Part shown: positions 14,776 to 51,585 of the stretch, one piece after another
Layout: each line of letters opens with the position of its first letter
How positions within the stretch are numbered: position 1 is the first letter of the stretch
Origin: a virus
Lineage: Duplodnaviria; Caudoviricetes
Strand: one strand, 5' to 3'
DNA: 64,000 nt
IMG/VR virus record: IMGVR_UViG_3300023105_001349
Coordinates: 15,518 to 79,517 of that record
Notes under the pieces: model-generated
What the model saw: only the letters and a program-made list of their open reading frames with translations
Database searches by the model: none
Told to the model about the DNA's origin: nothing
Position numbers and translations under genes: made by a program

Positions 14776-14778
14776 ATA
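14771..14778 (+). promoter_or_regulatory. T4-late-like promoter box GATAAATA
   Basis: Overlaps the stop of the giant ORF and lies 19 nt before the ATG at 14798, with an AGGA SD in between. Confidence 0.55.
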
Positions 14779-14797
14779 GTGTATAGGAAACAAAAAA

Positions 14798-25342: not shown

Positions 25343-25371
25343 TTGACAAACCATTAAATTTGTTATATAAT
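25343..25371 (+). promoter_or_regulatory. Perfect sigma70 promoter TTGACA-N17-TATAAT
   Basis: TTGACA at 25343-25348, 17-nt spacer, TATAAT at 25366-25371. AGGAG SD at 25381, ATG at 25392. Confidence 0.9.
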
Positions 25372-25391: not shown

Positions 25392-25742
25392 ATGGATAAC
25401 AGATTAAAAATGGCGTTGCATTTCTCAAACTACATGGCAACGTTAAACAACCAACGTAGAATTTTAAAAGAAAAATTTAAAAACGACACCACTTACTACT
25501 TTAATGGTGGGCAGTTTACTATTGATAGATCTCTTATTGTGTATGTTAAAGATCTTTGCGATCAAAGCACTGTAGAAACTATTTTAATAGACGATAATCA
25601 AAATCCTATACAAGTATCTCCGTTATCAAATTTCCTAGAAGTTATTACTGACAAGTACAATAATGCAACTGCAACATATTTTACAGAATATGATGCTCTA
25701 AGGAAAAATAGATCTGTGGAGAAACTTGTAGAGCATGAGTAA
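25392..25742 (+). CDS. Hypothetical protein (116 aa), first gene of the glycosyltransferase block
   Basis: Strong promoter and SD. Overlaps the next gene. Confidence 0.65.
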   Translation: MDNRLKMALHFSNYMATLNNQRRILKEKFKNDTTYYFNGGQFTIDRSLIVYVKDLCDQSTVETILIDDNQNPIQVSPLSNFLEVITDKYNNATATYFTEYDALRKNRSVEKLVEHE

Positions 25743-26580
25743 GGGTATCTTAACACTTGCATCAAACAATAGTGAATTTGATTATTTGTTACAGGCACAG
25801 CAATTAGCAGAACGTGCATTAAAATACTTAGATTTACCTACTACTGTTGTTACAGATAAGTCATCTGTTGCAAATACTTCATGTAATCTATCTGTATTTG
25901 AAAATATAATTTATACAGACGAAGAATCTTTTGGAATTAGCAATCAACGAGAAATGTATGACGGCGATTACGGATTTAAAAAAGCACATTGGAAGAATGA
26001 AGCAAGACCTCTTGCTTACGATCTAACGCCATACGATGAAACTATACTAGTTGATACTGATATTGTAATTTGTAATAGTGATTGGAATATATGTTTTGAC
26101 CAACCACACAATTTTATGATATACAAAGACTGTATAAATCTATCAGAGAATCATTGGCCTTATCAATATGAAAAATTAGGAGAAATAGGTCCAGACTTTT
26201 ACTGGGCAAGTGTTGTATTTTTTAGAAAGACTGATGAAAATAAAATTTATTTTGATTTGTTAAAGCATATAAAAGAAGAATGGATACATTATACTCATGT
26301 GTATTCTTTGCCATCTAAAAAATATAGAAGCGATTACGCTTTTAGTATTGCAATACACATTGTTAACGGATTTAAGAAAGGCGACTTTGCTAAAAATATG
26401 CCAGGACAACTGTATTATATAACAGACAAAGGTATATTAAAAGAAATAGATAACGAGAATATGTTACTTTTAATTAATGATCCTACATACCCAAGAAAAT
26501 TTACTGCTTGTAGAACTAAAAAAATGAATGTTCATGTTATGAATAAGTTTAGTTTGGAGAGGTGCTTATGCGAGGAATAG
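25735..26580 (+). CDS. GT-A-fold glycosyltransferase-like protein
   Basis: N-terminal KGILTLA...DYLLQA strand-helix and a DxD motif in ETILVDTDIV. Confidence 0.65.
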   Translation: MSKGILTLASNNSEFDYLLQAQQLAERALKYLDLPTTVVTDKSSVANTSCNLSVFENIIYTDEESFGISNQREMYDGDYGFKKAHWKNEARPLAYDLTPYDETILVDTDIVICNSDWNICFDQPHNFMIYKDCINLSENHWPYQYEKLGEIGPDFYWASVVFFRKTDENKIYFDLLKHIKEEWIHYTHVYSLPSKKYRSDYAFSIAIHIVNGFKKGDFAKNMPGQLYYITDKGILKEIDNENMLLLINDPTYPRKFTACRTKKMNVHVMNKFSLERCLCEE

Positions 26581-27314
26581 TATTGTATGCATCTGGCGAA
26601 AAGTACGAAGAACAAGCAGAGCTTTGTGCATCTAGCATTCGTAAACACAATAAAGAAATTAGTATTACTACAGTTATAGAAACGGACACTGGTAGATTTG
26701 CAACTGATGGTAGATGTAACATATATCAAGAATCAATATATGATGAAACTATTGTTTTAGATACTGACACATTAGTATTAGATAACTTAGATTATGTTTG
26801 GGAGTGTTTATCGCAGCAAGACATTTACTATACTACAAAAGCATTTACCTTTAGAGGCGATGTTATTAACGACACGTTTTATAGAAAAACATTTATTAAA
26901 AATAATTTACCTAATGTGTACAATGCATTTTACTATTTTAAAAAATCTAAAGCAGCAGATGAGTTTTATAAAGTACAAAAAGAAGTAAACGATAACTGGA
27001 AAGATGTGTATGCAGAGTTTTGTCCGTTTCACACTCCTACTAAACCTAGTATGGATGTTAACACTGCTATTACTAGTTTAATTACAGGAACAAATTTTTA
27101 TAAAAGCAATATTCCACATCTAGTACACATGAAACCTAGAATACAAGGATGGGAAAATAATCCAGAGCACTGGCAAGATAAGGTTGGTGTTTATTTAACA
27201 GACGATTGTGAATTGTTTATTGGTAATAATAAACAACACGGTATATTTCATTATACAGAAAATGATTTTGTAACCAAAGAAAAGGTAAGGAAGTATCAAT
27301 GTCAGAACAGTTAA
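26568..27314 (+). CDS. GT-A-fold glycosyltransferase-like protein, paralogue of the preceding gene
   Basis: RGIVLYASGEKY..QA and ETIVLDTDTLV (DxD). Shares FY/FF.KS-type and HMK/HVMNK motifs with 25735..26580. Start placed at the ATG after the GGAG SD. Confidence 0.65.
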   Translation: MRGIVLYASGEKYEEQAELCASSIRKHNKEISITTVIETDTGRFATDGRCNIYQESIYDETIVLDTDTLVLDNLDYVWECLSQQDIYYTTKAFTFRGDVINDTFYRKTFIKNNLPNVYNAFYYFKKSKAADEFYKVQKEVNDNWKDVYAEFCPFHTPTKPSMDVNTAITSLITGTNFYKSNIPHLVHMKPRIQGWENNPEHWQDKVGVYLTDDCELFIGNNKQHGIFHYTENDFVTKEKVRKYQCQNS

Positions 27315-27835
27315 TGTACTTGTGTTGGAACGACAAAGGTTCTATTACAAGAATGTCCGGACAAGAAATTCCTAATTCTATTGCAGTGCCTATTAAAGCA
27401 ATAGAAGATGTTGTATTAGGTAAAGAAAATATTTCAAAATATAAAATTAAATTTAATACAGAAGAAAAGAAGTATGAACTAGTAGACGATGAAAATTTTG
27501 AATTAATGACTTTTAGAATAAAAGACAGTATTCATAAAATTAATCCAAATACAGTTAGCGATTACGATTTTAAAATTGTACAAGATACAAAAAATAAAAC
27601 GTGGACATTTAAATTAGTACAAGAATTAAATGTTGTACTTGATAAAGATCTTTGGTTTGCGTGTACACAAAAAGACAACCCTAATATTGTGTTAAGAACG
27701 TTTTTTGTTAATCTAAAAGAACTTACTGAAAACGAAATAACAGTAGGTTTCATTAATGACAAAGAAGAGTCTAATAAAGATGTAAGTATCTTTACAGCCA
27801 AGGCATTTGATAGATATAGTTACATACAGGTATAA
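27299..27835 (+). CDS. Hypothetical protein (178 aa)
   Basis: ORF overlapping the upstream gene and ending 1 nt before the next start. No motif recognised. Confidence 0.55.
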   Translation: MSEQLMYLCWNDKGSITRMSGQEIPNSIAVPIKAIEDVVLGKENISKYKIKFNTEEKKYELVDDENFELMTFRIKDSIHKINPNTVSDYDFKIVQDTKNKTWTFKLVQELNVVLDKDLWFACTQKDNPNIVLRTFFVNLKELTENEITVGFINDKEESNKDVSIFTAKAFDRYSYIQV

Positions 27836-27836
27836 A

Positions 27837-29441
27837 ATGAAAGTAGTAGATTACGATATAATTTATTTAAGTTACGATGAACCTAATGCAGAGAAGAATT
27901 ATGCAGATCTTCTTACTAAAGTTCCGTGGGCAAAACGTGTACACGGTGTAGAAGGCTCAGATGCTGCACATAAGGCTTGTGCTGATTTAAGCGAAACAGA
28001 TAGACTAATTGTAATAGACGGCGATAATGTTATTAATCAAGAATTTGTTAATCAAGAGTTTGAAGTAGATCCTAATGTAGATCTAAGTAGAAGTGTACTC
28101 AGTTGGACGGCTAAAAATATTATTAACGGCTTAGAATACGGCAACGGCGGTATTAAAAGTTGGCCAAAAGATGTACTGCTAAACATGCGTACACACGAAA
28201 ATGCTCCACCTGATAATATACAAGCTCAAGTAGAATTTTGTTGGGATATTAATTATTATCATATGGAAGGCTGTTATAGTACAGTACTTAATAATGAAAC
28301 ACCGCAGCAAGCATGGAGAGCAGGTTTCCGTGAAGGTGTCAAAATGGCATTAAAAGAAGGCAGAAAAGTTTCACCTTTAGATTTTAAAAAATTACATCAA
28401 GGCAATTTAGATAGACTGTATATTTGGACAATGGTAGGCTCAGATGTTGATAATGGACTATGGGCAATCTACGGAGCAAGACAAGGCTTGTATATGACAA
28501 TGTGTACAGACTGGGATTATGTTAATGTTCGTGATTTTACATATCTAAATAATATGTGGGAAAACGAAAGAATTAAAGAAGATGAATTGCTAATACATAT
28601 ACAAGCACTAGGTAATGATTTAATTAGTCAGTTAGATATTCCTATTGATCCTAACCCTTTGCTGCCAGGACAAAGTAAGTTCTTTAAGCAAGTATATACT
28701 AACCCAGCAAGAGCAAAAATGAAGCAAGCATCATTATCTGCTAGAAGTATTAGTAACTATGATATTGTGTTTATCAGTTATAATGAACCTAACGCTGAAA
28801 AGAATTGGGAATTATTAAAACATAGATTTCCAAGAGCGCAACGTGTACACGGTGTAAAAGGTATTCACCAAGCACACATTGAAGCAGCAAAATTATCTAA
28901 AACGCCAATGACTTGGATTGTTGATGGTGATGCAGTAATTAAGGATAATTTTAATTTTGATTACTATGTAGACATAAAAGATTATGATGTTGTTCATGTT
29001 TGGAGAAGCGAGAATAAAGTTAAAGGATTAGAATACGGCTATGGCGGTGTAAAATTATTCCCTACAGAATTAACTTTGAATATGGATATTAGTAAGCCAG
29101 ACATGACTACTAGCATCAGCAGAAAATTTAAACCTGTAAAAGAAGTAGCAAACATAACAGAATTTAATACAGATCCGTTCAACGCCTGGAAGAGTGCGTT
29201 TAGAGAATGTGCAAAATTATCTTCTAAAATTATTGATAGACAGAAAGATGATGAAACAGATATTCGCTTAGATGTATGGACAAGTGATACTGGCAATAAT
29301 GAACCTTTTGGTGATTATGTTACTCAAGGTGCAAGAGCCGGTAGAGAGTACGGTACTGCTAATCGCGGTAATGTAGACGCACTAAAAATGATAAACAACT
29401 TTGATTGGTTAAAGGAAAAATTTAATGCTAGAACCATTTGA
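27837..29441 (+). CDS. Tandem two-domain glycosyltransferase-like protein
   Basis: Two homologous halves: YDIIYLSYDEPNAEKN...RVHGV.G...AH...VIDGDN and YDIVFISYNEPNAEKN...RVHGV.G...AH...IVDGDA. Each has a DxD motif, G.GG.K and AWR/K.xFRE. Confidence 0.7.
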   Translation: MKVVDYDIIYLSYDEPNAEKNYADLLTKVPWAKRVHGVEGSDAAHKACADLSETDRLIVIDGDNVINQEFVNQEFEVDPNVDLSRSVLSWTAKNIINGLEYGNGGIKSWPKDVLLNMRTHENAPPDNIQAQVEFCWDINYYHMEGCYSTVLNNETPQQAWRAGFREGVKMALKEGRKVSPLDFKKLHQGNLDRLYIWTMVGSDVDNGLWAIYGARQGLYMTMCTDWDYVNVRDFTYLNNMWENERIKEDELLIHIQALGNDLISQLDIPIDPNPLLPGQSKFFKQVYTNPARAKMKQASLSARSISNYDIVFISYNEPNAEKNWELLKHRFPRAQRVHGVKGIHQAHIEAAKLSKTPMTWIVDGDAVIKDNFNFDYYVDIKDYDVVHVWRSENKVKGLEYGYGGVKLFPTELTLNMDISKPDMTTSISRKFKPVKEVANITEFNTDPFNAWKSAFRECAKLSSKIIDRQKDDETDIRLDVWTSDTGNNEPFGDYVTQGARAGREYGTANRGNVDALKMINNFDWLKEKFNARTI

Positions 29442-30468
29442 GTTATTAGATAGATTTGAATTGCTATACAACAATAATGTTGCTTTAGCTGATCTACGAC
29501 GAGCATATATTGATAAAGATATTAGTTCAATAATGCGTTTAGCTCATGCAGACGAAGATGTAAGAAAAGCAGTAGTTGATAAAAATAAGCACAGTATTTT
29601 TAGATTACTTGGCAGTGGGTCGTTTGTTGGCGACATAGAAGATTTAAGAAAGTTTACACTAACAGATAATTTACATTCTTTGTTCAGACTTGTTAAAAAT
29701 GACGAGTTGCGTAAAGCAGTAATTGAAGAAAATTTATATAGCATATTTAAATTTGCACCAGATGAAGATTTACGAAAATTAGTAATACAAGATAATAGAT
29801 GGAAACTTTGGCCAGTATTGTCTAGGTACACAGATACACAATTTGTTGAAGCATTTAAAAATTTATTTGCTAACGAAATAGAATACGATAAAGATTGTTT
29901 TAGTAGAGGACAGTTAAAAAGTAAACTGTGGTTGGTTGAAGAACTATCTAAACTAAATCAAAGTTTAGGAACAGTATATCTTTGTGCAGGTTGGTATTCT
30001 ACATTAGCAACTATGTTATTTGAATCTAAAATAAATGTTGACAAAATTAGAAGTTTTGATATAGATGAATCGTGTGTTTCAATTGCAGAAGTTATGAACA
30101 AGCCTTGGGTTTTAGACAAATGGAAGTTTAAAGCAACAACTAAAGATATTCATAATATTAATTTTAATATGCACTCTTATGTTACAAAAAATTCTAAAGG
30201 TGAAGAAACAAAAGTTGTAGAATCACCTGATACTATTATTAACACAAGTTGTGAGCATATTGAAAACTTTGCAGAATGGTATAATAAAATTCCTAAAAAT
30301 AAATTAGTTATATTACAAAGTAACAATTACTTTGAAATTGAGGATCACATTAACTGTTCTAAATCACTAGAAGAATTTAGTGAAACTGCTCCTATGTCAA
30401 ATGTTTTATATGAAGGACGTCTAGACTTAGGACAATACATAAGGTATATGAAAATTGGAATTAGATAA
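29425..30468 (+). CDS. Class I SAM-dependent methyltransferase-like protein with N-terminal helical repeats
   Basis: Motif I-like VYLCAGWYSTL, motif II IRSFDID, and DTIINTSCEH. Four E/D-L/V-RK...N..S.F.L repeats at the N-terminus. Confidence 0.6.
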   Translation: MLEPFELLDRFELLYNNNVALADLRRAYIDKDISSIMRLAHADEDVRKAVVDKNKHSIFRLLGSGSFVGDIEDLRKFTLTDNLHSLFRLVKNDELRKAVIEENLYSIFKFAPDEDLRKLVIQDNRWKLWPVLSRYTDTQFVEAFKNLFANEIEYDKDCFSRGQLKSKLWLVEELSKLNQSLGTVYLCAGWYSTLATMLFESKINVDKIRSFDIDESCVSIAEVMNKPWVLDKWKFKATTKDIHNINFNMHSYVTKNSKGEETKVVESPDTIINTSCEHIENFAEWYNKIPKNKLVILQSNNYFEIEDHINCSKSLEEFSETAPMSNVLYEGRLDLGQYIRYMKIGIR

Positions 30469-30679
30469 TTTAACATTGCGCGAGTTACAAACAGAGAGTG
30501 CAAGAGCTCTGAGTACCATGCAGGCTACAAATAATAATATATTTCAATTTAATAAACAAGCACACCATAATAGTCATAATTGGTATAAGGCTGTAATTAC
30601 ATGGTATGTAGAACAATACGGAGATTTGCCTAGCAAAGCAGGTCCGGGCAAAGATGTAGAATTGGTTTATAATGTATAG
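30455..30679 (+). CDS. Small hypothetical protein (74 aa)
   Basis: Overlaps both neighbours, consistent with translational coupling. Confidence 0.55.
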   Translation: MELDNLTLRELQTESARALSTMQATNNNIFQFNKQAHHNSHNWYKAVITWYVEQYGDLPSKAGPGKDVELVYNV

Positions 30680-31757
30680 ATATCAAGACATAAAAGAAGT
30701 ACATTTAGAAATTACGCAACGCTGTCAAGCGGCTTGTCCTATGTGCGATAGAAATTGTAATGGTGGCCCTGATAATCCGCATATTACAAATGCAGAACTT
30801 ACTCTTGAAGATTGTAAGCGTATCTTCAAACCAGACTTTATTAAACAACTTAAAACAATGTATATGTGTGGTAACTTAGGTGATCCTATTGTTGCTAAAG
30901 ATACACTAGAAGTATTTGAATATTTTAGAGAACACAATCCTACAATGTGGTTGAGTATGAATACAAATGCAGGAGCACGAGATGAAGATTGGTGGAGATC
31001 ACTTGCGAGAGTTTTTGGCAGATATGGTGCTGTTATTTTTAGCGTGGACGGGTTGGCTGATACTAATCACATATATCGTCAAGGTGTTAATTGGAGCATA
31101 GTAGAGCGCAGTGCGAAAGCATTTATAGATGCTGGCGGCAGAGCTCGCTGGGATTTTATTGTGTTTGAACATAACGAACATCAAGTTGAAAGAGCAGAAG
31201 AATTATCAAAGCAATACGGCTTTGAAAGATTTGTAGCAAAAAAGACAGGACGTTTTTATAGTACAGCACAACTTACAGGCAAGGAAACACATCAAGCAAT
31301 TAATCGCAAAGGTGAAGAAACAGCAGAACTTGCAAAACCTAAAAAACAAGAATATATCAATCTTGCTCTTTTAAAAGAAGAAGAAATAACTAAAACTTAT
31401 GGTAGCATGGAACAATACTATAACAAGTGTAGCATTGATTGTAAAGTTGCCAAACAGGGTAGTATTTTTATTACAGCAGAAGGACTATTAATGCCTTGCT
31501 GTTGGACTGCTGGACGTATGTATAAATGGTGGCATCCTGATTATCGTGTAGAACAAATTTGGGATCACATTGACAACGCTGGAGGTAAAGAAGGTATTGA
31601 TGTAATTAATAAAGATCTTGAAACTGTAATGAATGGTACACTATTAAAAGGTATACAAGACAGTTGGAATATTGACGGAATTAAAAACGGTAAACTAGGT
31701 GTATGTGCAATGAAGTGCGGAACAGAGTTTGACCCATATACGGAACAGTTTAAATGA
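30672..31757 (+). CDS. Radical SAM protein with C-terminal SPASM/twitch domain (subfamily A)
   Basis: CQAACPMC (Cx3Cx2C), CGNLGDP, and C-terminal CK...FITAEGLLMPCC...CAMKCG. Confidence 0.85.
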   Translation: MYRYQDIKEVHLEITQRCQAACPMCDRNCNGGPDNPHITNAELTLEDCKRIFKPDFIKQLKTMYMCGNLGDPIVAKDTLEVFEYFREHNPTMWLSMNTNAGARDEDWWRSLARVFGRYGAVIFSVDGLADTNHIYRQGVNWSIVERSAKAFIDAGGRARWDFIVFEHNEHQVERAEELSKQYGFERFVAKKTGRFYSTAQLTGKETHQAINRKGEETAELAKPKKQEYINLALLKEEEITKTYGSMEQYYNKCSIDCKVAKQGSIFITAEGLLMPCCWTAGRMYKWWHPDYRVEQIWDHIDNAGGKEGIDVINKDLETVMNGTLLKGIQDSWNIDGIKNGKLGVCAMKCGTEFDPYTEQFK

Positions 31758-32806
31758 TTAATAAGATTGAATTAGAAATTACTAGTGATTGTAATGCAGC
31801 CTGCCCAGGATGTGCTAGAACACTTAATCCTGATAAGTTAAAAATACAAAGTTTTACATATCATGATATTTTAAGATTATTCCCTACTGAAGCAGATATT
31901 CGCGGTAAAGAATTTAAATTTTGCGGAGTATTAGGAGATCCTGCTCTTAATGTTGAATGTGTTAAGATGGTAGATTACCTAGTTACTAACGGAGCATATT
32001 GTGAACTAAGCACAAATGGCGGTTATCAAACTGCTGACTGGTGGCGTAGTTTAGGCAACATCGCAGCAGAATATCCTGGTAGAGTGTATATACATTTTTG
32101 TGTTGACGGACATAAAGAAACTAATCATATCTATCGTGTTAATACAAAGTTTAATATTATTGAACGTAATATGAAAGCGTTCTCTGATGCTGCACCTAAA
32201 AATAGTGCATCTTGGATCTATATTGTATTTGATCACAATGAGCATGAATTAGAAGCAGCAAAAGAACATGCAGCCAAGTTAAATTTTGAATTTGCTACAC
32301 GAACAGGTATGCGTAACAGTTACCATGATTGGGTAGCACAATTAGGTAAAAAGAACAATAAACAGGAAAAGGTTATTACAACTACAGGTGCTAAAGAACA
32401 TAGTAAAAAAGAAGTTGTAAAAGAACTTGATAAGTTTATTGAAGAATACAAAACAACACAAGTTGATGAAGATAAAATTAAAGCAGTTACTGATAGTATT
32501 GTTTGCAAATATATTCACGAAGGTGAAATCTTTATTGCAAGCGATCTTACTATGTGGCCTTGCTGTTTCCTTTGGGATAGTGCTTTTAAAAATAAAGAAG
32601 ACATTGTAAACAAGTTAGCACAATTTGAACCAAATTGGAATAGTTTAAAACACCATTCTATACAAGAAGTTATGCAACATGAGTGGTATAGCAAGTTATT
32701 AGGTGCAAGTTGGCACCCTTATCATAGTATGCATTTTGCTAGATGTATTAAGACATGTGCAAAAAATAAAGCATATCACAACGAAATAAACTACACAGTT
32801 AATTAG
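31754..32806 (+). CDS. Radical SAM protein with C-terminal SPASM/twitch domain (subfamily A)
   Basis: CNAACPGC, CGVLGDP, and C-terminal CKY...FIASDLTMWPCC...CIKTC. Confidence 0.85.
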   Translation: MINKIELEITSDCNAACPGCARTLNPDKLKIQSFTYHDILRLFPTEADIRGKEFKFCGVLGDPALNVECVKMVDYLVTNGAYCELSTNGGYQTADWWRSLGNIAAEYPGRVYIHFCVDGHKETNHIYRVNTKFNIIERNMKAFSDAAPKNSASWIYIVFDHNEHELEAAKEHAAKLNFEFATRTGMRNSYHDWVAQLGKKNNKQEKVITTTGAKEHSKKEVVKELDKFIEEYKTTQVDEDKIKAVTDSIVCKYIHEGEIFIASDLTMWPCCFLWDSAFKNKEDIVNKLAQFEPNWNSLKHHSIQEVMQHEWYSKLLGASWHPYHSMHFARCIKTCAKNKAYHNEINYTVN

Positions 32807-32813
32807 GTAAGTA
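32806..32813 (+). promoter_or_regulatory. Late-like box GGTAAGTA, 5 nt before ATG (candidate leaderless start)
   Basis: TAAGTA-ttaat-ATG(32819). No SD upstream. Confidence 0.45.
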
Positions 32814-32818
32814 TTAAT

Positions 32819-39464: not shown

Positions 39465-39465
39465 A

Positions 39466-39789
39466 ATGCAAAAAGTAAGATGTGCAGCATATGATTATAA
39501 TTTAAAAAAGTGGGACGAGCTTGATGTGTCTGCTCATCTTAAAGTATATCCGTGTTGTGCATATCAAGGATATTATGAACTAAATGAATGGGATGACAAG
39601 CGTTTTAAAAAACTTCCTGTACACTGGAATGATCTAACACAACATAGCATGGAAGAAATTAAGGCCACTATGGAAACTATTCTAAATGTTAAAAACTTTG
39701 AGTCAGGTAAAGCGCCAAACAGATGTAAACTTATTTGCGGCATTGGAAATGATGAAAGACATACTCCGGGAAGGGATCATAAATTATAA
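39466..39789 (+). CDS. Stand-alone SPASM/twitch-like domain protein
   Basis: RC...DVSAHLKVYPCC...RCKLICG matches the C-terminal domains of 30672..31757 and 31754..32806. Confidence 0.65.
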   Translation: MQKVRCAAYDYNLKKWDELDVSAHLKVYPCCAYQGYYELNEWDDKRFKKLPVHWNDLTQHSMEEIKATMETILNVKNFESGKAPNRCKLICGIGNDERHTPGRDHKL

Positions 39790-40904
39790 TGACTAAACGA
39801 AAACACAGTTGCGATCTTCCATTTCATCATATAGCAACACGACCAGACGGTCGTGTGTTTCCGTGTTGTTATTTTAGATGGGAAGAAACTCCTACAGACT
39901 TAACTGTTGATCACAAAGATCCTTTTAATCATCCGTTTTTAGTTGACTTAAGAAATAAAATGCTTAATGACGAATATATTGAAGGTTGTAGTAGATGTTA
40001 TAAAGACGAAGAAACAAGCGGACATAGTATGCGCCTTGATATGAATAGCGTAAAACACTTTGGATTTCCTGAAGACAGTCGCGGCAAAGTTCCTAAACTA
40101 ACTAACATAGACTTAACATTTAGTAACGTTTGTAATAATAAGTGTAGAATGTGCGGACCAGAGCTTAGTACTAGTTGGTATAGTGATGCTAAAAAGTTAG
40201 GTATTAAGCATAGTGGTATTATTGCCAAAAATACAATATTAGATGATTATGATTTAAGTGAATTAAGATTTATAAAACTGTTAGGTGGCGAGCCACTAAT
40301 GGAAGAAGCTAAATTAATTGACTTACTTAAAAAATGTAATCGCAAAGAACTTACACTGCTTTTAATAACAAACACTACAATACGTCCAAAAGGAGAACTA
40401 TACGAACTGTTAAAAGAAGTTAAAAATCTTAAAGTAGAACTTAGTATAGATAGTTACGGCCGGTTGAATGATTTCTTACGTAAAGGTAGTGATTGGGACG
40501 AAGTATGGGAGAATGTCTTTTGGTTTAAAGAACAAGGGGTTGAACCTAGTGTACATAGTGTTGCAAGTATATACAATGTTAACAAAGTTCACGAACTAAT
40601 TAGTTTTTGTAAAACTTTAGAACTAGATCACAAATATGTTATGTTAGATGGTCCTGATTGGATGATGCCAAGAAACTTACCTAACTTTGCTAAAAAAGAA
40701 TTAATCGAAGAATACAAAGATAAGAAAGCACCTATATACAAGTTAATTGTAGAAGAATTAAAACAAGAAGGTAATTTTAGAAAGTTTTTAGACATGGATA
40801 ATAAACTTAATGAAATACGGAAAGAACATTGGGCGCCTCATAACGAATGGTTGCTTAAAGTCTTGACAACATACAATGAAGATGTTATTATAAAATATGA
40901 ATGA
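39789..40904 (+). CDS. Radical SAM protein with N-terminal twitch domain (subfamily B)
   Basis: SCDLPF...PDGRVFPCC...CSRC, then CNNKCRMC and LLGGEP. Confidence 0.85.
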   Translation: MTKRKHSCDLPFHHIATRPDGRVFPCCYFRWEETPTDLTVDHKDPFNHPFLVDLRNKMLNDEYIEGCSRCYKDEETSGHSMRLDMNSVKHFGFPEDSRGKVPKLTNIDLTFSNVCNNKCRMCGPELSTSWYSDAKKLGIKHSGIIAKNTILDDYDLSELRFIKLLGGEPLMEEAKLIDLLKKCNRKELTLLLITNTTIRPKGELYELLKEVKNLKVELSIDSYGRLNDFLRKGSDWDEVWENVFWFKEQGVEPSVHSVASIYNVNKVHELISFCKTLELDHKYVMLDGPDWMMPRNLPNFAKKELIEEYKDKKAPIYKLIVEELKQEGNFRKFLDMDNKLNEIRKEHWAPHNEWLLKVLTTYNEDVIIKYE

Positions 40905-42021
40905 AGATTTAAAATGGAGCGAGTATGACTTCTCTAAAATACCATTTGACGACATTGTTGGTGTTGGTCAACGTACTTTGCTTTATCGTGATATATTTAC
41001 TGTTAGTTGGTTACTGGGAAGATTCTGTAACTACAGATGCTCCTACTGCTGGCCTTACGCCCGATCCGATCGTAAAGACCACCGTCCTACCGAGCTCTGC
41101 TTGCTTACAGTGGATGAAATTAAACGTCAAGCCCGAGACAATGGCTTCAATTCTTTCCACTTCTCCTTGTCAGGAGGAGAGCCTACTTTCCATCCTGGAT
41201 ACTTGGACATACTAAAGCATCTAGCAGACGATGTAGCAAACACAAACTATACTAGCGTACATATGACTAGTAATTGTAGTAGGAATATGGACTGGTTTAA
41301 ACAATATGTTGAAGCAGTAAAACCGTTTCATCGAGCCAGCATAACAGCAAGTTTACACACAGAACATGTAAATACTACTGAAAGGATGGAGGAGTTTGCT
41401 AACAAACTCATCCTATGTCAAGAAAATGATGTCCAAGTTACGATCAATATGGTCATGGTTCCAGAACAGTTTGAACGAGACTGGAGCAATGCCTTATTCT
41501 TCCATTCCAGAGGCATTAATGTCACTCTCAAGCCTCAGTCTGATCCAACAGCATCAAGAGTTGTTGAGGGATATACAGAAGAAATGCTCCAAAGACTCCA
41601 CAACGGAATGCCCCAAAGAGCATACACAGAAGTAAAGAGAATCTGGAATGATAGACCAAAACCACAATTTGCACTACCTAGTTATATAGACGGTATTAAT
41701 GATGCCAGTGTACCGTGGCATATGCAAGTTGAATTAAGAGATAAAAACGGTAAAAAATGGTATATGGATCAAGCAGAAAGATTTAATGCCTTTAATTTTA
41801 ATAAGTTTAAAGGATGGCATTGCTCTGCTGGATACAGTGGAATCATTATACGAGAGCCTGATGGCAGTGTAAAACGTAGTTATAGTTGCCACGATGTACC
41901 ATTAGGAAATATAGAAACAGGTTTTAAATTATTTGATAGCCCTAAACCCTGTATTACAGAAAGTTGCGTAAGTAGCGCAGACTCAAAGATCCCTAAACGA
42001 TTAATAGCATCAAGTAAATAA
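40897..42021 (+). CDS. Radical SAM protein (subfamily C)
   Basis: VSWLLGRFCNYRCSYC, LSGGEP, and C-terminal GWHC...SCH...PC...CVSSAD. Confidence 0.85.
   Translation: MNEDLKWSEYDFSKIPFDDIVGVGQRTLLYRDIFTVSWLLGRFCNYRCSYCWPYARSDRKDHRPTELCLLTVDEIKRQARDNGFNSFHFSLSGGEPTFHPGYLDILKHLADDVANTNYTSVHMTSNCSRNMDWFKQYVEAVKPFHRASITASLHTEHVNTTERMEEFANKLILCQENDVQVTINMVMVPEQFERDWSNALFFHSRGINVTLKPQSDPTASRVVEGYTEEMLQRLHNGMPQRAYTEVKRIWNDRPKPQFALPSYIDGINDASVPWHMQVELRDKNGKKWYMDQAERFNAFNFNKFKGWHCSAGYSGIIIREPDGSVKRSYSCHDVPLGNIETGFKLFDSPKPCITESCVSSADSKIPKRLIASSK
42013..42020 (+). promoter_or_regulatory. Late-like box AGTAAATA, 5 nt before ATG (candidate leaderless start)
   Basis: TAAATA-atact-ATG(42026). No SD upstream. 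Confidence 0.5.
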
Positions 42022-42025
42022 TACT

Positions 42026-43510
42026 ATGCCTACATTTGACGCAATATTATTCACAGATACAGCCGCATATCCACATTGGACTAGAGGATATGGCGCTCAC
42101 CGTCTTGCATCTCATTTAAGGACTCACGGATATAGCGTATTAGTAATAGATTTTAGTTTAGCACTACAGTTTGAAACTTGGAAAGAAATTTGCAAATATG
42201 CAATAGGTAGCAATACTTTATTCTTAGGATTCTCTACTACATGGTGGCCGTATAGAAATCCAGATCAAGATAATCCGTTTATTAATCCTAGTGTAAATAT
42301 GGCAGACACACTTATAGATAACTTCAAAAAAGAAATGCCTGAAGATCGTACACTTACTTACGATGCTGCAAATGGAACAGTTAATCGATGGATTGACGAA
42401 GCAAAGAATTATAATGAGAATATTAAAGTTTTAATTGGTGGAGCCAAAATTGATTGGTACAGAGATTTCCCAGCAGATTATTTTTTTAGTGGATTAAGCG
42501 AAACACAAATAGTAGATTTTTTAACAGAAGAACTTCGAATTTGGCCAAGATATATTAAACACGATACACATGCAGATCATCATAGATGGGATTGGTTGCA
42601 TAGTAGCACACGATATACAGATTTAGATTTTATAGTTCCGGGAGAAGTTCTTACATTGGAAACAGCCCGTGGATGTAAATTTAAATGTTCATTTTGTTCT
42701 TTCCCTTTGATAGGGCAAAAAAAGATTGCAGATTATACAAAAACAGAAGAAACACTTTATCAAGAACTTTTAGAGAACTGGGAGAAGTGGGGAATAACTG
42801 ATTACTGGATTGCAGATGACACATTCAACGATAATACTGAGAAGTTAAGAATGTTTCATAAAATTACAAAAAAACTACCGTTTGATCTTAACTATAGAGC
42901 ATATTTAAGATTAGACGTAATGGCAATGCATCCTGAACAAATAGGATTGCTTTACGAATCAGGAATTAAAAACTGTTGGTTTGGAATTGAAACTTTCCAT
43001 CCTGAGGCAGCAAAAGCAATAGGCAAAGGCATGCCCGAAGAGAAACGTAAACAAGCATTATATGATATGCAAAAAGTATGGGGCAATGATGTAGCAGTTG
43101 CTAGTGGATATATTGTAGGATTGCCTCATGAGCCAGTAGATCATATATACAAACAAGCAGAGTGGTTTATGGAAGATAATAATCCAGTAAATCATAATCC
43201 TAACTTTATGCCTTTAATTATTAATCCTCCCGGAGCGTATGAATATCATCCAATGAGTGCAATTGACAGAAATCCTGAGAAGTACGGATATAATATTCCT
43301 GATATGAAACGTTTTAATTTTTGGACTAAAGACGACGGCACCGGCATTGAATCTTTTGAGAAAGCCTGGCAAATAAGCGGAGATATTACTCAAAAGATTG
43401 CTAGTAGGGGTAATAAAATAATTAATGAATTAGACTATCAACACGGTATTAAAGATCCACAAGAAGAATACTTTAAGCCGTTAGTGGAGAAATTAAAAAA
43501 TGGAAGATGA
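42026..43510 (+). CDS. Radical SAM protein with N-terminal B12-binding-like domain
   Basis: RGYGAHRLASHLR.HGYSVLVID, LIGG, then LETARGCKFKCSFC and GIETFHP. This is the architecture of cobalamin-type radical SAM methylases. Confidence 0.75.
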   Translation: MPTFDAILFTDTAAYPHWTRGYGAHRLASHLRTHGYSVLVIDFSLALQFETWKEICKYAIGSNTLFLGFSTTWWPYRNPDQDNPFINPSVNMADTLIDNFKKEMPEDRTLTYDAANGTVNRWIDEAKNYNENIKVLIGGAKIDWYRDFPADYFFSGLSETQIVDFLTEELRIWPRYIKHDTHADHHRWDWLHSSTRYTDLDFIVPGEVLTLETARGCKFKCSFCSFPLIGQKKIADYTKTEETLYQELLENWEKWGITDYWIADDTFNDNTEKLRMFHKITKKLPFDLNYRAYLRLDVMAMHPEQIGLLYESGIKNCWFGIETFHPEAAKAIGKGMPEEKRKQALYDMQKVWGNDVAVASGYIVGLPHEPVDHIYKQAEWFMEDNNPVNHNPNFMPLIINPPGAYEYHPMSAIDRNPEKYGYNIPDMKRFNFWTKDDGTGIESFEKAWQISGDITQKIASRGNKIINELDYQHGIKDPQEEYFKPLVEKLKNGR

Positions 43511-44360
43511 TTACCTATTAGGTCCAGATAAAATGCTGTATCAAATACCAGTAAACTTTCCTACACTTCCGGAAGGATCAAGAGTAGGAATATTCTTCTC
43601 GGGTGGCATGGAATCAAGTTTAATTGCTGCTATAGCAATGCATCAATATGGCAAAGATAATGTATTTTTATTTTATAGTGATTCTATGTTCTCTGGAAAC
43701 AACAAAGTTATAGATAGAAATATACGAGCTAATGTAGAACGTAGTGCTGTTTTATTTGATAAAGAACCTATATACGTTGAAACTGATTTAGAACTATTAG
43801 CAAACGATCGTAAAGAATTTGTAATTTCGTATACTCAACAAGTTATAGACGAATACAAATTATCTGGTATGTTATTTGGGTTTACTAGATTGTTTTTTGA
43901 AGTAGAACCGTTTAAGGATGAAAGTTTAACATTAGAACAAATTGTAGATATGGCATACGAAACTCCAATGTTATATAAAGATACAATTAGAGAATTTCAC
44001 TTAGACACCAAAGAATATGCAGATCATTTACAAGATATAGATATTCCGTCTGAAGTATATCCTATACTTAGAGGAGCTCCTGGAATAAGAAGTCCGTTTG
44101 CTGAATTAAACAAAAAAGAAATTGTTGATTTATATGCACAATTAGGTATTTTAGAAATATCATATGCAACTAGTTCTTGTATCATGGACGAGTTATACGA
44201 TACAGGCAAACATTGTGGCAAATGTTTTAATTGTCAACAACGATATGATGCTTATCAAATGGCAGGATATCCTGATAATACTCCGTACTTAAATACAGAT
44301 ATAGTAGACCGATACAATGAGTTACAGAAAGTAAGACATGAACTTTATAACAAAGACTGA
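43500..44360 (+). CDS. QueC-like PP-loop ATP pyrophosphatase family protein 2
   Basis: VGIFFSGGMESSL and C-terminal SSC...HCGKCFNCQQRYDAY..AG.PD.T.Y, which resembles the QueC zinc-binding tail. Confidence 0.65.
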   Translation: MEDDYLLGPDKMLYQIPVNFPTLPEGSRVGIFFSGGMESSLIAAIAMHQYGKDNVFLFYSDSMFSGNNKVIDRNIRANVERSAVLFDKEPIYVETDLELLANDRKEFVISYTQQVIDEYKLSGMLFGFTRLFFEVEPFKDESLTLEQIVDMAYETPMLYKDTIREFHLDTKEYADHLQDIDIPSEVYPILRGAPGIRSPFAELNKKEIVDLYAQLGILEISYATSSCIMDELYDTGKHCGKCFNCQQRYDAYQMAGYPDNTPYLNTDIVDRYNELQKVRHELYNKD

Positions 44361-44901
44361 TTTTAAAGTAGACCTAGAACAAATGCGTTCTGACTTAGAT
44401 GCATTATTAAATGTGCATGACGGTTGGCCTAAAGAAGATTTTGTACGCAAAATGTCGGGTAATCAACTTAGTGCTAAACACCGTCTAAACGAAGACATTT
44501 GGTTAGATGGTCAAGGTAATTTATGGGATCCTGTTAAAGAAGAATTTATAGCAACAGAAGCAGACTTTACAGAGTATAATCCTCATTTAGGATCGTATAC
44601 TGTACAAGCATTAAAAGATTTAGAAACGCACGAAGGTGTTAAATTTGGTCGTATACGTTATATGCGATTAGAGCCTAAAAAAGGTCTAAGTATACATAAA
44701 GACTTTGATGCTAGATATCATTTTGTATTACATACAAATGACAATGCTCTATTTGGAGAAGTAACAAATAGTAATGTCAAAGCCGTTTGTTATCATTTAC
44801 CTGCTGATGGGCATGCCTATAAAGTAGATACTACTAGAGAACATTTTGTTTATAACGGCGGTTGGGAAGATAGAATACACTTAGTAATTAATATTGCTTA
44901 G
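44338..44901 (+). CDS. Cupin/2OG-Fe(II) dioxygenase (Asp/Asn beta-hydroxylase-like)
   Basis: RYMRLEPKKGLSIHKD (HxD), RYHFVL, and DTTREHFVYNGG..RIHLV. Confidence 0.7.
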   Translation: MNFITKTDFKVDLEQMRSDLDALLNVHDGWPKEDFVRKMSGNQLSAKHRLNEDIWLDGQGNLWDPVKEEFIATEADFTEYNPHLGSYTVQALKDLETHEGVKFGRIRYMRLEPKKGLSIHKDFDARYHFVLHTNDNALFGEVTNSNVKAVCYHLPADGHAYKVDTTREHFVYNGGWEDRIHLVINIA

Positions 44902-45670
44902 GTTTATCTTCAACAGTGTCTATTGCTAAAAATCTTTTAATAATCCAAGCAGGCGGATCAATTTGCCACTTACCAATACCTTGTGTTAACTTCCACGGCA
45001 TTGCATGATGATTGTTATGCCATCCTTCACCTAAACTTGTAATATTAGCAATCCAGCTATTACGTGCTTCGTCTGCACCTAAATCGTGTGTTTTGTATCC
45101 ATGTCTGTGTGCAATTACAATAATGCTACTAGAAGCGTGTAATGTTAAACAACTAGGTATTGCATAACCAAAGATAACTAACCATGGGCTAATAAGTGCT
45201 AGTAGTATACAATAAGTTACTATAATAGTAACATAGTGTTTATGTAAAAACTTTTGAAACGAATCTTTACGTAAATCTTTTACTAAACGTAAATCTAATT
45301 TTGGTATATCCCAAAATCCAAACCATGCTCTTAAATTACCTAGTAGATAAGGACTATGAGGATCTTCATCTGTTTCTGTATGTTTATGGTGCTGTCTATG
45401 TACAGCAGTCCATGCAAGTGGACTTCCAATAGTAGTTAAACTTCCAATTAAAGACAATGCTTTCTCTATAAAGGGATAAGTTGTAAAACTTCTATGGCTA
45501 AGTAATCTATGAAATCCTATATTAATGCCTAATATAGTTGTTACTACAAAAAATGCAAGCGCAATAGCAAGCCAATGATATTGTCCTGTAGCAAATACAA
45601 ATCCTAAACCAACTAGGCCTAGAACGTGATTAATTACTTGCAAACCTCTTGTTTTTTGATTGTGTGTCAC
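44888..45670 (-). CDS. Membrane fatty-acid desaturase (delta-9/DesC-OLE1 type)
   Basis: Three His boxes (HRLLSH, HRQHH, HNNHH), hydrophobic TM segments and a DPHSP motif. Likely start is the GTG at 45670, overlapping the upstream stop. Confidence 0.9.
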   Translation of the reverse strand: MTHNQKTRGLQVINHVLGLVGLGFVFATGQYHWLAIALAFFVVTTILGINIGFHRLLSHRSFTTYPFIEKALSLIGSLTTIGSPLAWTAVHRQHHKHTETDEDPHSPYLLGNLRAWFGFWDIPKLDLRLVKDLRKDSFQKFLHKHYVTIIVTYCILLALISPWLVIFGYAIPSCLTLHASSSIIVIAHRHGYKTHDLGADEARNSWIANITSLGEGWHNNHHAMPWKLTQGIGKWQIDPPAWIIKRFLAIDTVEDKPKQY

Positions 45671-46287
45671 TAGTCTGTTCCTTCTGGCAAAGTATTCCAC
45701 TCTGCTGTATCTATGATGTTTGGCTTCCAATCTTCGAAAGCATTATTTTTTAAATTCAAATAAACATAGTACTGATAGCAATTTTTTACACTAGAAGGAC
45801 AAGTTTGTAAAAATCCATCTCCCTTAATCCATCTAGGATCTGCTCTTTGTAAACCTCTAACCCATATGTCAAAATATCCAGTTGTTGGTTTACGGCGATC
45901 CTGCATTGCCATAAAGTACCCGTCAAAATTATTTATTTCAATTAACGGTTTAATACCATGCTCTACGGCTACTTCCCAAAGTTTACTAAACCCTTTAAAT
46001 GACGTAGTTCTATATTTAGGAAACCAGTATGTTCTATTAATCATTCTAGCCATGTTCTTTGGCATTAACCGCTCATCACGATATACACCACCAAATGATG
46101 CTGGTTCGTCTGTCCTCTTATCATAGATAACAATAAAGCCGTTATGTTTAGAAACACTTAAACGTTCTTTTGTGTAAATGTGTCTTAACCAATTATCTTC
46201 TTCTAAACAAAGATCTCTTACATCTTCAAATTCTAAACAATCTTGATAATATATTTTATGATAAAATTGATCGATATCGTGCAACAT
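45670..46287 (-). CDS. Hypothetical protein, possible GNAT-fold acyltransferase
   Basis: Strand pattern FIVIYD...ASFGGVY...ARMINRTYWFPKYR resembles GNAT beta2-beta4. Weak call. Confidence 0.35.
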   Translation of the reverse strand: MLHDIDQFYHKIYYQDCLEFEDVRDLCLEEDNWLRHIYTKERLSVSKHNGFIVIYDKRTDEPASFGGVYRDERLMPKNMARMINRTYWFPKYRTTSFKGFSKLWEVAVEHGIKPLIEINNFDGYFMAMQDRRKPTTGYFDIWVRGLQRADPRWIKGDGFLQTCPSSVKNCYQYYVYLNLKNNAFEDWKPNIIDTAEWNTLPEGTD

Positions 46288-46292
46288 ATAGT

Positions 46293-46300
46293 TACTTAGC
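46293..46300 (-). promoter_or_regulatory. Late-like box GCTAAGTA, 5 nt before ATG (candidate leaderless start)
   Basis: Minus strand TAAGTA-actat-ATG(46287). No SD. Confidence 0.45.
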
Positions 46301-46329
46301 CACTATTATATGCGCAGTTAATAAAAGCG

Positions 46330-46337
46330 AATAAGTA
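46330..46337 (+). promoter_or_regulatory. Late-like box AATAAGTA
   Basis: Divergent intergenic region, 20 nt before the ATG at 46358, with a GAGG SD. Confidence 0.4.
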
Positions 46338-46357
46338 TATTATAGAAAGAGGTTCAC

Positions 46358-46897
46358 ATGAATTTACAAGATAAAAAAGATTTAATACAAAGAATTATTG
46401 ACAGTCAAGATATTATTGAAGAAGAATATCTAAACTTTAATCGCCGTCGTGTTCCTCTACCTGATTATGATGATGGCGATATTGTACCTGGCTGGACAGG
46501 TACAGCATTATGGTGGGATTATAAAGCATGGCCTAGTTCTCAAAGACGCTGTCCTAGAGTAACTGAATTAGTACGCAATGGTCCTGACCATAGAGCAACT
46601 GGATGGTTAGTATTAGATCCAAAAAGTAAAACACCAGAACATAATCATAAAGACTGGGGACATAAAATCATTTGTCATTTGCCAACTGTACTTCCAAAAG
46701 GTGATAGTGGATTTGTAGTTGAAGGCGAAACATATAATTGGAAGATGGGCGAATTCTTTGCGTTCGATGCTTCAAAAAATCATTATGGATATAACGATAC
46801 TAATTTTGAAAGATCGCTATTTGTATTAGATTTTGATTATAAAGAATGGATTGATGTACTAGAACCGTACATGCATCTAGATAATAAGGCGTCTTAG
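46358..46897 (+). CDS. Aspartyl/asparaginyl beta-hydroxylase family dioxygenase
   Basis: LDPKSKTPEH...ICHL..VLP...F.V.GETYNWK.GE.FAFDAS..H.GYN....R..FVLDF, the characteristic Asp/Asn hydroxylase (LpxO-like) pattern. Confidence 0.75.
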   Translation: MNLQDKKDLIQRIIDSQDIIEEEYLNFNRRRVPLPDYDDGDIVPGWTGTALWWDYKAWPSSQRRCPRVTELVRNGPDHRATGWLVLDPKSKTPEHNHKDWGHKIICHLPTVLPKGDSGFVVEGETYNWKMGEFFAFDASKNHYGYNDTNFERSLFVLDFDYKEWIDVLEPYMHLDNKAS

Positions 46898-47593
46898 ACG
46901 CCCATACAAGCCCGTAGAGCAGCTTAAAAAGAACTGATATCCACTTGCATCCTCGCATATTGCATCGTGTACTATAGACGTATCTATTAGGTATAAACGC
47001 CCTGGTTCTACTTCAGTAGTGTCTACTAATTCGTCGTTTACAGCGTATCTTAATTTAATACCATCTGTAGTAGTACCCCAAAGTCTAATCCAAGGACTAG
47101 GTACAGCAGTATCGATGTGTGGTTTAAAATGAGCACCGGGCTTCCAATAAAGTATATTTGAACGCAACCAATGGTTACTAAATTGTTTTAATGGTTGTAA
47201 CGATGGTAAATCCATAACTTCTGTTTCTTGTGTAAAGTCAGTTTCTAGTAATGGATTATCTGGATTCTTTAAATTGTATTCGTATAATGAACCATTTACG
47301 GGATCGTTATGATGTAGTTCGCCTGTTTGATTTACAAGTGCTAACCCGTATCTTGGTAAATGTAAGTGTTCATTCCCCCATTGTTCAAAAAAATCATTGT
47401 ATGCTACAATTTCTTTATTAAATTGTTCAACATCAATTTTTATATCAATAGGAGTTAAAAAGAAAGGATGGAGTCGAGTATAATCTTCCTCGTGAATCCA
47501 TCCTACTAAAGAGTTGTATTTTTGTTTTTGAATGTCAGAAGTTAAAAAAACTTCTTTTGATAATCTAATTATTTCTTCGGAGTTTACCCGCAT
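46877..47593 (-). CDS. Cupin/2OG-Fe(II) dioxygenase-like protein
   Basis: ILYWKPGAHFKPHID (HxD), IRLW, and VEPGRLYLIDTSIVHDA. Confidence 0.65.
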   Translation of the reverse strand: MRVNSEEIIRLSKEVFLTSDIQKQKYNSLVGWIHEEDYTRLHPFFLTPIDIKIDVEQFNKEIVAYNDFFEQWGNEHLHLPRYGLALVNQTGELHHNDPVNGSLYEYNLKNPDNPLLETDFTQETEVMDLPSLQPLKQFSNHWLRSNILYWKPGAHFKPHIDTAVPSPWIRLWGTTTDGIKLRYAVNDELVDTTEVEPGRLYLIDTSIVHDAICEDASGYQFFLSCSTGLYGRLRRLII

Positions 47594-47603
47594 CAATTAC
47601 CTA

Positions 47604-51556: not shown

Positions 51557-51585
51557 ATTATAGCAATATTTAATCAGTTTGTCAA
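51557..51585 (-). promoter_or_regulatory. Perfect extended sigma70 promoter TTGACA-N17-(TGn)TATAAT
   Basis: Minus strand TTGACA at 51585-51580 and TATAAT at 51562-51557, upstream of the VWA gene. Confidence 0.9.

Follow-up and report, generated by a model that had tools for sequence, protein, structure and literature searches.

We analysed a 64,000-nucleotide stretch of viral DNA, here called the window (bases 15518-79517 of the 79.5-kb IMG/VR virus record IMGVR_UViG_3300023105_001349; CheckV completeness 22%), and found that positions 25392-44901 carry 21 plus-strand open reading frames (ORFs) over 19.5 kb, in which the largest gap between successive ORFs is 12 nucleotides (nt). We read this series as a single plus-strand operon whose last three genes are lineage-specific. 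Its core (25392-42021) contains two GT8-like glycosyltransferase (GT) genes, the gene of a tandem GT-A protein, those of a methyltransferase-fold protein and of a protein of 74 amino acids (aa), and genes for radical S-adenosylmethionine (rSAM) enzymes of three subfamilies. On balance, the operon is probably a phage pathway that builds and edits a glycan or glycoconjugate. Genes are named by their first position, and the features are collected in Table 1.

The original prediction had described an island of about 22 kb, placed directly after the fibre genes, in which most genes are translationally coupled. The position after the fibre genes is confirmed, and the coupling is borne out across the operon once the ORF of the 74-aa protein is counted. 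The island as one unit is not: what stands is the operon, with a core whose gene order is syntenic among relatives, whereas 42026-47596 is variable, of mixed strands and not co-inherited with the core. That part is absent from the closest relative, and other relatives have only paralogues of 30-39% identity in other arrangements; the homologues of 42026 found elsewhere are likewise only 30-39% identical and stand in other orientations. It appears to be a lineage-specific add-on. The genes from 44888 onward lie outside the operon, mostly on the minus strand, and we read 44888-47596 as separate auxiliary genes.

To place the operon in its genome, we consider the flanking genes. Upstream, a plus-strand ORF of more than 4,800 aa with an open 5' end (1-14775) matches the giant virion structural protein family phrog_10938 (E 3.5e-275) and is followed by several tail-fibre proteins. 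Downstream, 47604-48656 on the minus strand encodes a fibre-like protein with an N-terminal Mtd_N (major tropism determinant) domain. Because of the giant structural ORF and the fibre genes on one side and the Mtd_N fibre gene on the other, the region lies within the 'host recognition' (fibre) module of an uncultured, marine, T4-like jumbo phage. Three relatives encode a T4-type major capsid protein Gp23 (E 1e-84 to 1e-99). From the CheckV completeness of related records (28-51% at lengths of 102-182 kb), a genome size of about 350 kb is implied for the lineage.

Ten ORFs in 30672-43510 match the Pfam family Radical_SAM (PF04055), nine of them above the gathering score of 29.5, and each of the ten keeps exactly one CxxxCxxC motif. 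Thus, the ten rSAM ORFs that had been predicted are all present, although one of them is split. All-against-all BLAST divided them into four subfamilies: A (30672, 31754 and 38793), B with an N-terminal twitch domain (32819, 34216, 36321 and 39789), C (37630 and 40897) and D, which is B12-rSAM-like (42026). The four ORFs of subfamily B belong to NF033640 (N_Twi_rSAM), for which a whole-protein score of at least 170 bits is required; they score 196-417 bits, and the other six rSAMs score 30-43 bits or, for 42026, have no listed match. These four ORFs share with the family an N-terminal Cys-rich domain followed by CxxxCxxC. In their alignment the invariant C29, C91 and C94 precede C147, C151 and C154, a predicted auxiliary-cluster architecture. 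We know of no characterised member of NF033640 and no reaction; the name describes the architecture only, and membership therefore gives no function. An ESM Atlas look-up of 32819 returned only unnamed viral clusters or sub-threshold matches.

In subfamily A, a C-terminal Cys-rich domain is present in 30672 and 31754. The best solved relative of the subfamily profile is the sugar-nucleoside decarboxylase BlsE (E 1e-5, core region only). The third member, 38793, has no such auxiliary domain, and a separate ORF (39466-39789) begins 1 nt past its stop codon. When aligned by hhalign to the 30672 family, that ORF covered its positions 263-356, and PCC and CxxxCG were in register (probability 81%, E 1.3e-5). 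Because 39466 aligns to exactly the auxiliary domain that 38793 lacks, the two are one split rSAM; it could be an enzyme of two pieces or one that was broken recently. For 42026, the NCBIfam matches, at 62-45 bits, are far under their cut-offs and cover mainly the core: PhpK, a B12/rSAM protein of ladderane-type lipid biosynthesis (TIGR04072) and HpnJ. The B12-binding domain PF02310 had no Pfam match in 42026.

The three GT-like genes with four domains of the original prediction hold at the level of remote homology, by a GT8 profile and a GT-A model. The family profile that covers 25735 and 26562 has a match to glycogenin (GT8) over the N-terminal 100 residues (E 1.6e-5), and the DxD motif is invariant; the Pfam GT8 family PF01501 matches none of the window proteins and one of 20 homologues (E 0.005). 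An internal duplication is seen in the sequence of 27807, and the DGD of its family is invariant in 13 sequences. The domain model (predicted local distance difference test, pLDDT, 91) has a GT-A fold, with Foldseek probability 1.0 to RmlT, PBCV-1 A64R, SunS and WrtF at a template-modelling (TM) score of about 0.4. The two domains are therefore modelled as GT-A folds with a DxD-type metal site, and their activity is a predicted one. Searching the GT-A domain profile against PDB sequences gave nothing useful, and an atlas fold search of the domain gave unnamed viral clusters only. A single-domain version of the 27807 gene is present in Bdellovibrionota.

The model of 29425 confirmed the fold of the predicted SAM methyltransferase. 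Structure matches (Foldseek, VIA) reach Z 17 for NodS, and RebM and BioC follow closely; the three range over Z 15-17, at an rmsd of 2.5 A over 160 residues. Within the SFDID motif, D214 shows no variation and D212 hardly any, and the Gly-rich loop is atypical (GW). The modelled structure is that of a class I SAM-dependent methyltransferase fold. A profile search of the 29425 family against PDB sequences gave nothing useful.

Two QueC-like ATPases are also present as predicted, 35495 by its motifs and 43500 by the Pfam family QueC. The QueC equivalog TIGR00364 has a cut-off of 150 bits; 43500 scores 33.5 bits, in the C-terminus only, and 35495 has no match to it. What these proteins have in common with QueC is confined to the PP-loop and the Zn-type Cys motif. 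The 35495 family profile gave only weak superfamily matches among PDB sequences. Homologues of 35495 adjoin rSAMs in Bdellovibrionota.

Between 29425 and 30672 lies the gene of the 74-aa protein. The 203-nt 'gap' at 30469-30671 was considered as a non-coding or regulatory RNA and rejected, since it holds this conserved coding ORF. The gene was found in 71 of the 80 viral loci compared, the best matches being 78-86% identical, and its differences per site by codon position (0.22, 0.11 and 0.47) are concentrated at third positions. At 90% identity the protein falls into 2908 database clusters; of those listed, nearly all are 74 aa in length and none has a functional name. Conservation runs along most of its length, with no Cys and no hypervariable core. 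An ESM Atlas look-up returned only unnamed viral clusters or sub-threshold matches. The idea that the protein is fused to the Bdellovibrionota homologue of 29425 was rejected because the extra length of that homologue is N-terminal. A predicted complex of 29425 and the 74-aa protein had a score of 0.00, which carries no weight for or against binding.

To see how far the operon is inherited as a unit, we compared viral relatives. Homologues of 32819 were found in 291 viral contigs, and in the best 80 of these, whose loci were compared, the protein is 83-93% identical. The shared order is the GT-A gene, the methyltransferase-like gene, the 74-aa gene, 30672, 31754, 32819, a variable series and 40897. 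The variable series is made of genes of the 34216, 35495, 37630, 39789 and 36321 types, and paralogues are inserted or lost between lineages. In the closest relative every orthologue is intact, with ratios of nonsynonymous to synonymous change (dN/dS) of 0.03-0.30 (about 0.03 for 32819) that are rough since dS is saturated, and 40897 is directly followed by an Mtd_N fibre gene. The core is under purifying selection in many relatives. Neither shuffled singletons nor decayed copies were seen for the core, as its order is shared and its orthologues are intact; the claim of a genuine biosynthetic-type cluster is upheld for a core that is conserved, syntenic and, by these ratios, under purifying selection. 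With 291 contigs carrying close 32819 homologues and 2908 clusters of the 74-aa protein, the phages concerned appear to form a very abundant group. Homologues of 25392 occur in 16 viral loci.

Two cultured phages have related genes. Ralstonia phage RsoM2USA (344 kb) carries a mini-cassette, RsoM2USA_347-354, beside structural genes, in the order fibre-like gene, homologues of 25392 (34% identity), 25735 and 26562, GT-A domain 1, one N-twitch rSAM, GT-A domain 2 and methyltransferase. Its ORF356 and ORF359, next to the mini-cassette, were found in virions, and the cassette ORFs were left unannotated (PMC8504454). Vibrio phage K566 (255 kb; OZ196521.1, 161548-168284) has four N-twitch-like rSAMs in a row, 21-25% identical to those of the window; homologues of the GT-A or methyltransferase genes were not detected in K566 by tblastn. 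GenBank phages gave no match to 30000-44000 by megablast or to 42026 and 40897 by tblastn.

The evidence that bears most on the product comes from cellular homologues, for which one prokaryotic genome per species was scanned. Orthologues of 32819 that are 60-64% identical lie on large Bdellovibrionota contigs and complete chromosomes. Homologues of five genes (29425, 27807, 32819, 30672 and 40897) occur together in nine Bdellovibrionota loci with a median span of about 5.7 kb, and around these five-gene cores are further rSAM paralogues, QueC-like genes and GT2 genes. A Pfam scan of the neighbours of one such core gave a TSP_3 repeat protein as its only match. More distant cellular homologues of the N-twitch rSAMs are 27-37% identical to the phage rSAMs. 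In the cultured bacteria Poseidonocella sedimentorum and Sphingomonas sp. 37zxx their contexts contain an NDP-hexose 2,3-dehydratase (NDP, nucleoside diphosphate; 396 bits), an EryCIII-like GT1, B12-rSAMs and a type I polyketide synthase (PKS). In Bdellovibrio sp. HCB2-146 the rSAM gene has a 4-nt overlap with that of a UDP-glucose/GDP-mannose dehydrogenase; next come genes for an epimerase/dehydratase and a DegT aminotransferase. N-twitch rSAM homologues adjoin GT4 and GINT1_N in Vicinamibacterales and lie near GT2 genes and a QueC-like gene in Bacteriovoracaceae. These contexts are mutually independent and all related to sugar nucleotides and glycosyl transfer. Because the cellular N-twitch rSAM homologues adjoin NDP-sugar enzymes and glycosyltransferases, a glycan or glycoconjugate is the best-supported class of product, in line with the modified glycan that had been proposed. 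As a separate observation, a 1271-aa ORF of a Vicinamibacterales metagenome-assembled genome (locus 11346-15161) is an apparent fusion of an N-twitch rSAM with PKS acyltransferase and dehydratase domains.

Next we consider when the operon is expressed. A perfect sigma-70 promoter precedes 25392; three such sites occur in the window as compared with 0.12 expected, and the site is kept 19-23 nt before the 25392 homologue in five relatives and 8 nt before it in a sixth. The other two perfect sites (TTGACA-N16-18-TATAAT), at 51557-51585 and 63213-63241 on the minus strand, lie outside the region described here. Within the operon, a perfect-consensus promoter stands 6-8 nt before the 40897 homologue in nine relatives and 32 nt before it in a tenth, which suggests a conserved internal promoter at 40897 giving a leaderless mRNA. 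Late-type boxes had been predicted before 32819, 42026, 46287 and 46358; we searched for them and did not find them. The T4 late motif TATAAATA occurs once in 64 kb, with 11 expected, at 24241 just before the fibre gene 24275. The shorter ATAAATA occurs seven times in the window, with 37 expected (14772, 19319, 21988 and 24242 on the plus strand; 45930, 48690 and 53517 on the minus strand), and not at all on the plus strand of the operon. Structural genes are closely preceded by four of these sites: the genes at 14798, 19350 and 24275, and the fibre gene that starts at 48656 on the minus strand. This depletion and placement would fit late-promoter use with avoidance elsewhere. Since the perfect sigma-70 promoter before 25392 is kept in relatives and T4-late motifs are found only elsewhere, the promoter sequences argue for transcription of the operon by the host RNA polymerase as an early-type rather than a late unit.

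In the pathway that we propose, the GT-fold proteins would transfer sugars to an acceptor, and the methyltransferase-fold protein and the rSAMs would next use radical chemistry to edit either the transferred sugars or the NDP-sugars from which these derive. Candidate edits are oxidation, epimerisation, deoxygenation, decarboxylation and C-methylation. The QueC-like PP-loop ATPases may act by activating a carboxyl or carbonyl group, so that amidation or a related exchange can follow, and the changing number of rSAM paralogues between relatives would give product diversity. As for the acceptor, for which the virion or fibres, the host envelope and a lipid are candidates, decoration of the virion or fibres is slightly favoured over remodelling of the host envelope because the cassette is constantly beside fibre genes, even in RsoM2USA. 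The GT-A fold matches to SunS, ppGalNAc-T and A64R and the glycogenin match of the GT8-like profile fit a protein acceptor and do not discriminate between acceptors.

Several points weigh against a glycan pathway. No operon gene has a characterised orthologue, and the pathway is put together from sequence, models and gene contexts. The window encodes no recognisable nucleotide-sugar synthesis enzyme, and no epimerase, dehydratase, dehydrogenase or aminotransferase family was detected at 25392-47596 with Pfam and NCBIfam. The GT assignments are remote, with no Pfam match above cut-off, a TM score of about 0.4 and a glycogenin match confined to the N-terminal 100 residues; the cellular homologues in sugar contexts are only 27-37% identical, and their function may have diverged. 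In addition, most characterised SPASM and twitch rSAMs act on peptides, and SunS, ppGalNAc-T, A64R and glycogenin are protein or peptide glycosyltransferases.

A bolder form of the glycan reading is possible though doubtful. The five-gene core, together with the 74-aa protein and the QueC-like ATPases, would carry out an undescribed radical editing of carbohydrates and make a new class of sugar on the fibres or virions of T4-like jumbo phages that is also made by predatory Bdellovibrionota. The rSAM array would then be a generator of surface-chemistry diversity at the predator-prey interface.

Alternatively, the rSAMs could modify proteins or peptides directly on fibres, on other virion proteins or on a small precursor, like the maturases of ribosomally synthesised peptides with post-translational modifications (RiPPs), with the GTs and hydroxylases adding more. 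We regard this as unlikely. The SPASM/twitch-type auxiliary Cys domains of subfamilies A and B are typical of peptide maturases, and many RiPP maturases are among the sub-threshold NCBIfam matches. The operon is flanked by fibre genes, has Asp/Asn hydroxylase-family genes adjacent and encodes the conserved 74-aa protein; the GT-A matches include peptide or protein glycosyltransferases, and the GT8-like profile matches the self-glucosylating glycogenin. However, the 74-aa protein, the only small conserved ORF, is unlike RiPP precursors in being conserved without Cys or a hypervariable core. No RiPP recognition element (RRE) or PqqD domain, leader protease, exporter or other transporter family was detected with Pfam and NCBIfam, and the cellular contexts are of NDP-sugar, GT and PKS type, not of RiPP type.

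It is also rather improbable that the operon makes, instead of a decoration, a diffusible or membrane small molecule directed during infection at the host or competitors, such as a glycolipid, a glycosylated polyketide-like lipid or a modified nucleotide. The type I PKS genes in the Poseidonocella, Sphingomonas and Vicinamibacterales contexts, with one rSAM-acyltransferase-dehydratase fusion protein, would agree with such a product, as would the weakly viperin- and MoaA-like subfamily C (these enzymes act on nucleotides), the early-type promoters before the operon and the desaturase nearby. Yet the window has no gene for a PKS, an acyl carrier protein or a lipid carrier, the desaturase, encoded on the other strand, is not inherited together with the cassette, and linkage of the cassette to fibre genes is constant and extends to RsoM2USA, a distant phage.

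Hypermodification of phage DNA, which had been offered as another possibility, for example via the QueC-like ATPases or base glycosylation, is very unlikely and found no positive support: there are two QueC-like PP-loop genes, and some phage GTs glycosylate DNA, but both PP-loop proteins are far below the QueC equivalog cut-off (33.5 versus 150 bits), their homologues sit among rSAMs on Bdellovibrionota chromosomes too, the operon lies in the fibre module and not among DNA-metabolism genes, and no DNA-binding or base-exchange domain was found in the operon with Pfam.

Returning to a glycan or glycoconjugate product, we compared the operon with described systems. Cassettes of rSAM genes in such phages have already been noted in the literature. 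A 183-kb T4-like marine genome has 12 rSAM genes (Nishimura 2017, PMC5332604), and the pelagimyophage host recognition cluster contains 'radical SAM gene cassettes' and glycosyltransferases (Zaragoza-Solas 2020, PMC7029224). The latter cluster has the same layout as the region described here, with a giant VrlC-like protein, tail fibres, glycosyltransferases and rSAM cassettes. The giant ORF at 1-14775 is similar to the VrlC-like protein described at the start of these clusters. On the other hand, both papers (PMC7029224 and PMC5332604) mention the rSAM and GT genes only, as Fe-S-related or lipopolysaccharide-related auxiliary genes; the core, the subfamilies, the Bdellovibrionota and RsoM2USA counterparts and the promoters are not defined there, and the present lineage (about 350 kb by CheckV) is larger than the pelagimyophages described. 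An Fe-S A-type carrier has been reported for such phages (Nishimura 2017, PMC5332604); PF01521 was not found in the window's record and four related fragments, all of which are incomplete, so this is uninformative.

Like the glycosylation systems of PBCV-1 (A64R, capsid) and Mimivirus (fibril), the operon places virus GT-A enzymes with structural genes, and the 27807 domain has A64R among its best fold matches. Conventional sugar-nucleotide enzymes serve in those systems, which have no rSAM array, whereas the window has the reverse: of a cluster with nucleotide-sugar enzymes and GTs, 25392-47596 has GT-fold genes only. The natural-product sugar rSAMs (BtrN, DesII, BlsE and GenK-type B12 methylases) resemble the present case in that the distant homologues of the window's rSAMs lie in deoxysugar/GT1/PKS clusters with B12-rSAMs, but sequence similarity does not go beyond the superfamily level (E 1e-5, core region), and orthology to a characterised enzyme was not found. 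The cassette can be regarded as a real and abundant variant of virus-encoded glycosylation or sugar-tailoring systems with a predicted chemistry.

It appears that a very abundant group of ocean phages devotes to one pathway 15-20 kb of DNA, with as many as twelve oxygen-sensitive Fe-S enzymes. If its product is a glycan on fibres or virions, this would change the view of adsorption, host range and decoy avoidance in marine jumbo phages, and would provide the first substrates for the four NF033640 N-twitch ORFs and the two unnamed rSAM subfamilies. That Bdellovibrionota share the core hints at a surface chemistry common to two kinds of predators of bacteria that are unrelated to each other. Since the RsoM2USA mini-cassette and the K566 array of four rSAMs are both in cultured phages, the question can be tested at the bench.

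Table 1. Promoters and genes of the operon and of the auxiliary genes next to it (window positions).
Position	Strand	Feature	Basis or remark
25343..25371	+	Perfect sigma-70 promoter	TTGACA-N17-TATAAT; ends 20 nt before 25392, first operon gene
25392..25742	+	Conserved 116-aa protein, first cassette gene	No Pfam, NCBIfam or PHROG match
25735..26580	+	GT8-like (glycogenin-like) glycosyltransferase candidate	Family profile and invariant DxD; no direct Pfam match
26562..27314	+	Second GT8-like candidate, paralogue of 25735	Shared profile; weak NCBIfam Npun_R2821/2; phrog_1903
27299..27835	+	178-aa protein	No family match (Pfam, NCBIfam, PHROG); homologues in 10 viral loci
27807..29441	+	Tandem GT-A-fold glycosyltransferase-like protein, two domains	Model and motif; likely start ATG 27837
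29425..30468	+	Helical-repeat N-terminal domain and class I SAM-methyltransferase-fold domain	Model pLDDT 92; core gene
30455..30679	+	74-aa protein, overlaps both neighbouring genes	Conserved coding ORF, absent from earlier ORF list
30672..31757	+	rSAM subfamily A, C-terminal Cys-rich auxiliary domain, core gene	Pfam/NCBIfam; 47% identical in Bdellovibrionota
31754..32806	+	rSAM, subfamily A paralogue	Pfam 24.8 bits (below 29.5); CxxxCxxC intact
32819..34219	+	N-twitch rSAM, most conserved gene of the locus	NF033640, 417 bits
34216..35523	+	N-twitch rSAM	NF033640, 196 bits
35495..36328	+	PP-loop ATPase, QueC-like	SGGADS and C-terminal CxxCxxC
36321..37640	+	N-twitch rSAM	NF033640, 371 bits
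37630..38796	+	rSAM subfamily C	Weak viperin- and MoaA-like matches
38793..39789	+	Split subfamily-A rSAM	Core domain 38793-39464; C-terminal Cys domain is separate ORF 39466-39789
39789..40904	+	N-twitch rSAM	NF033640, 242 bits
40863..40891	+	Sigma-70-like promoter	11/12 with TG; ends 5 nt before ATG of 40897
40897..42021	+	rSAM subfamily C, core gene	75-89% identical in phages, 63-68% in Bdellovibrionota
42026..43510	+	B12-rSAM-like rSAM (subfamily D), variable accessory gene	Sub-threshold NCBIfam matches
43500..44360	+	Second PP-loop QueC-like ATPase, accessory gene	Pfam QueC 43 bits, C-terminus only
44338..44901	+	Asp/Asn beta-hydroxylase-family cupin, last operon gene	PF05118, 40 bits
44888..45730	-	Delta-9-type fatty-acid desaturase	PF00487, 72 bits (cut-off 29.7); HRLLSH, HRQHH, HNNHH
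45670..46287	-	205-aa protein	No family match
46358..46897	+	Asp/Asn beta-hydroxylase-family cupin, own transcription unit	PF05118 (Asp_Arg_Hydrox), 70 bits
46877..47596	-	239-aa protein, candidate Fe(II) oxygenase	HxD...H motif only; no family match

Among the remaining genes, the predicted delta-9 desaturase was confirmed on the minus strand by PF00487 and its three His boxes, its delta-9 regiospecificity being deduced from the box pattern only. Two of the five long relatives searched have a homologue, which is only 30% identical. Of the three dioxygenases that had been proposed, 44338 and 46358 are supported by PF05118, and the third, 46877, has the HxD...H motif alone. Both the desaturase on the minus strand and the hydroxylase with its own transcription unit are probably auxiliary genes that are independent. 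In pelagimyophages, genes for Asp/Asn hydroxylases and desaturases are already known to be common (PMC7029224). No tRNA genes were found in the window. Among the fibre genes, the plus-strand ORF at 21700-22221 belongs to a DNA-endonuclease family (phrog_2297, E 2e-27) and may be a homing endonuclease.

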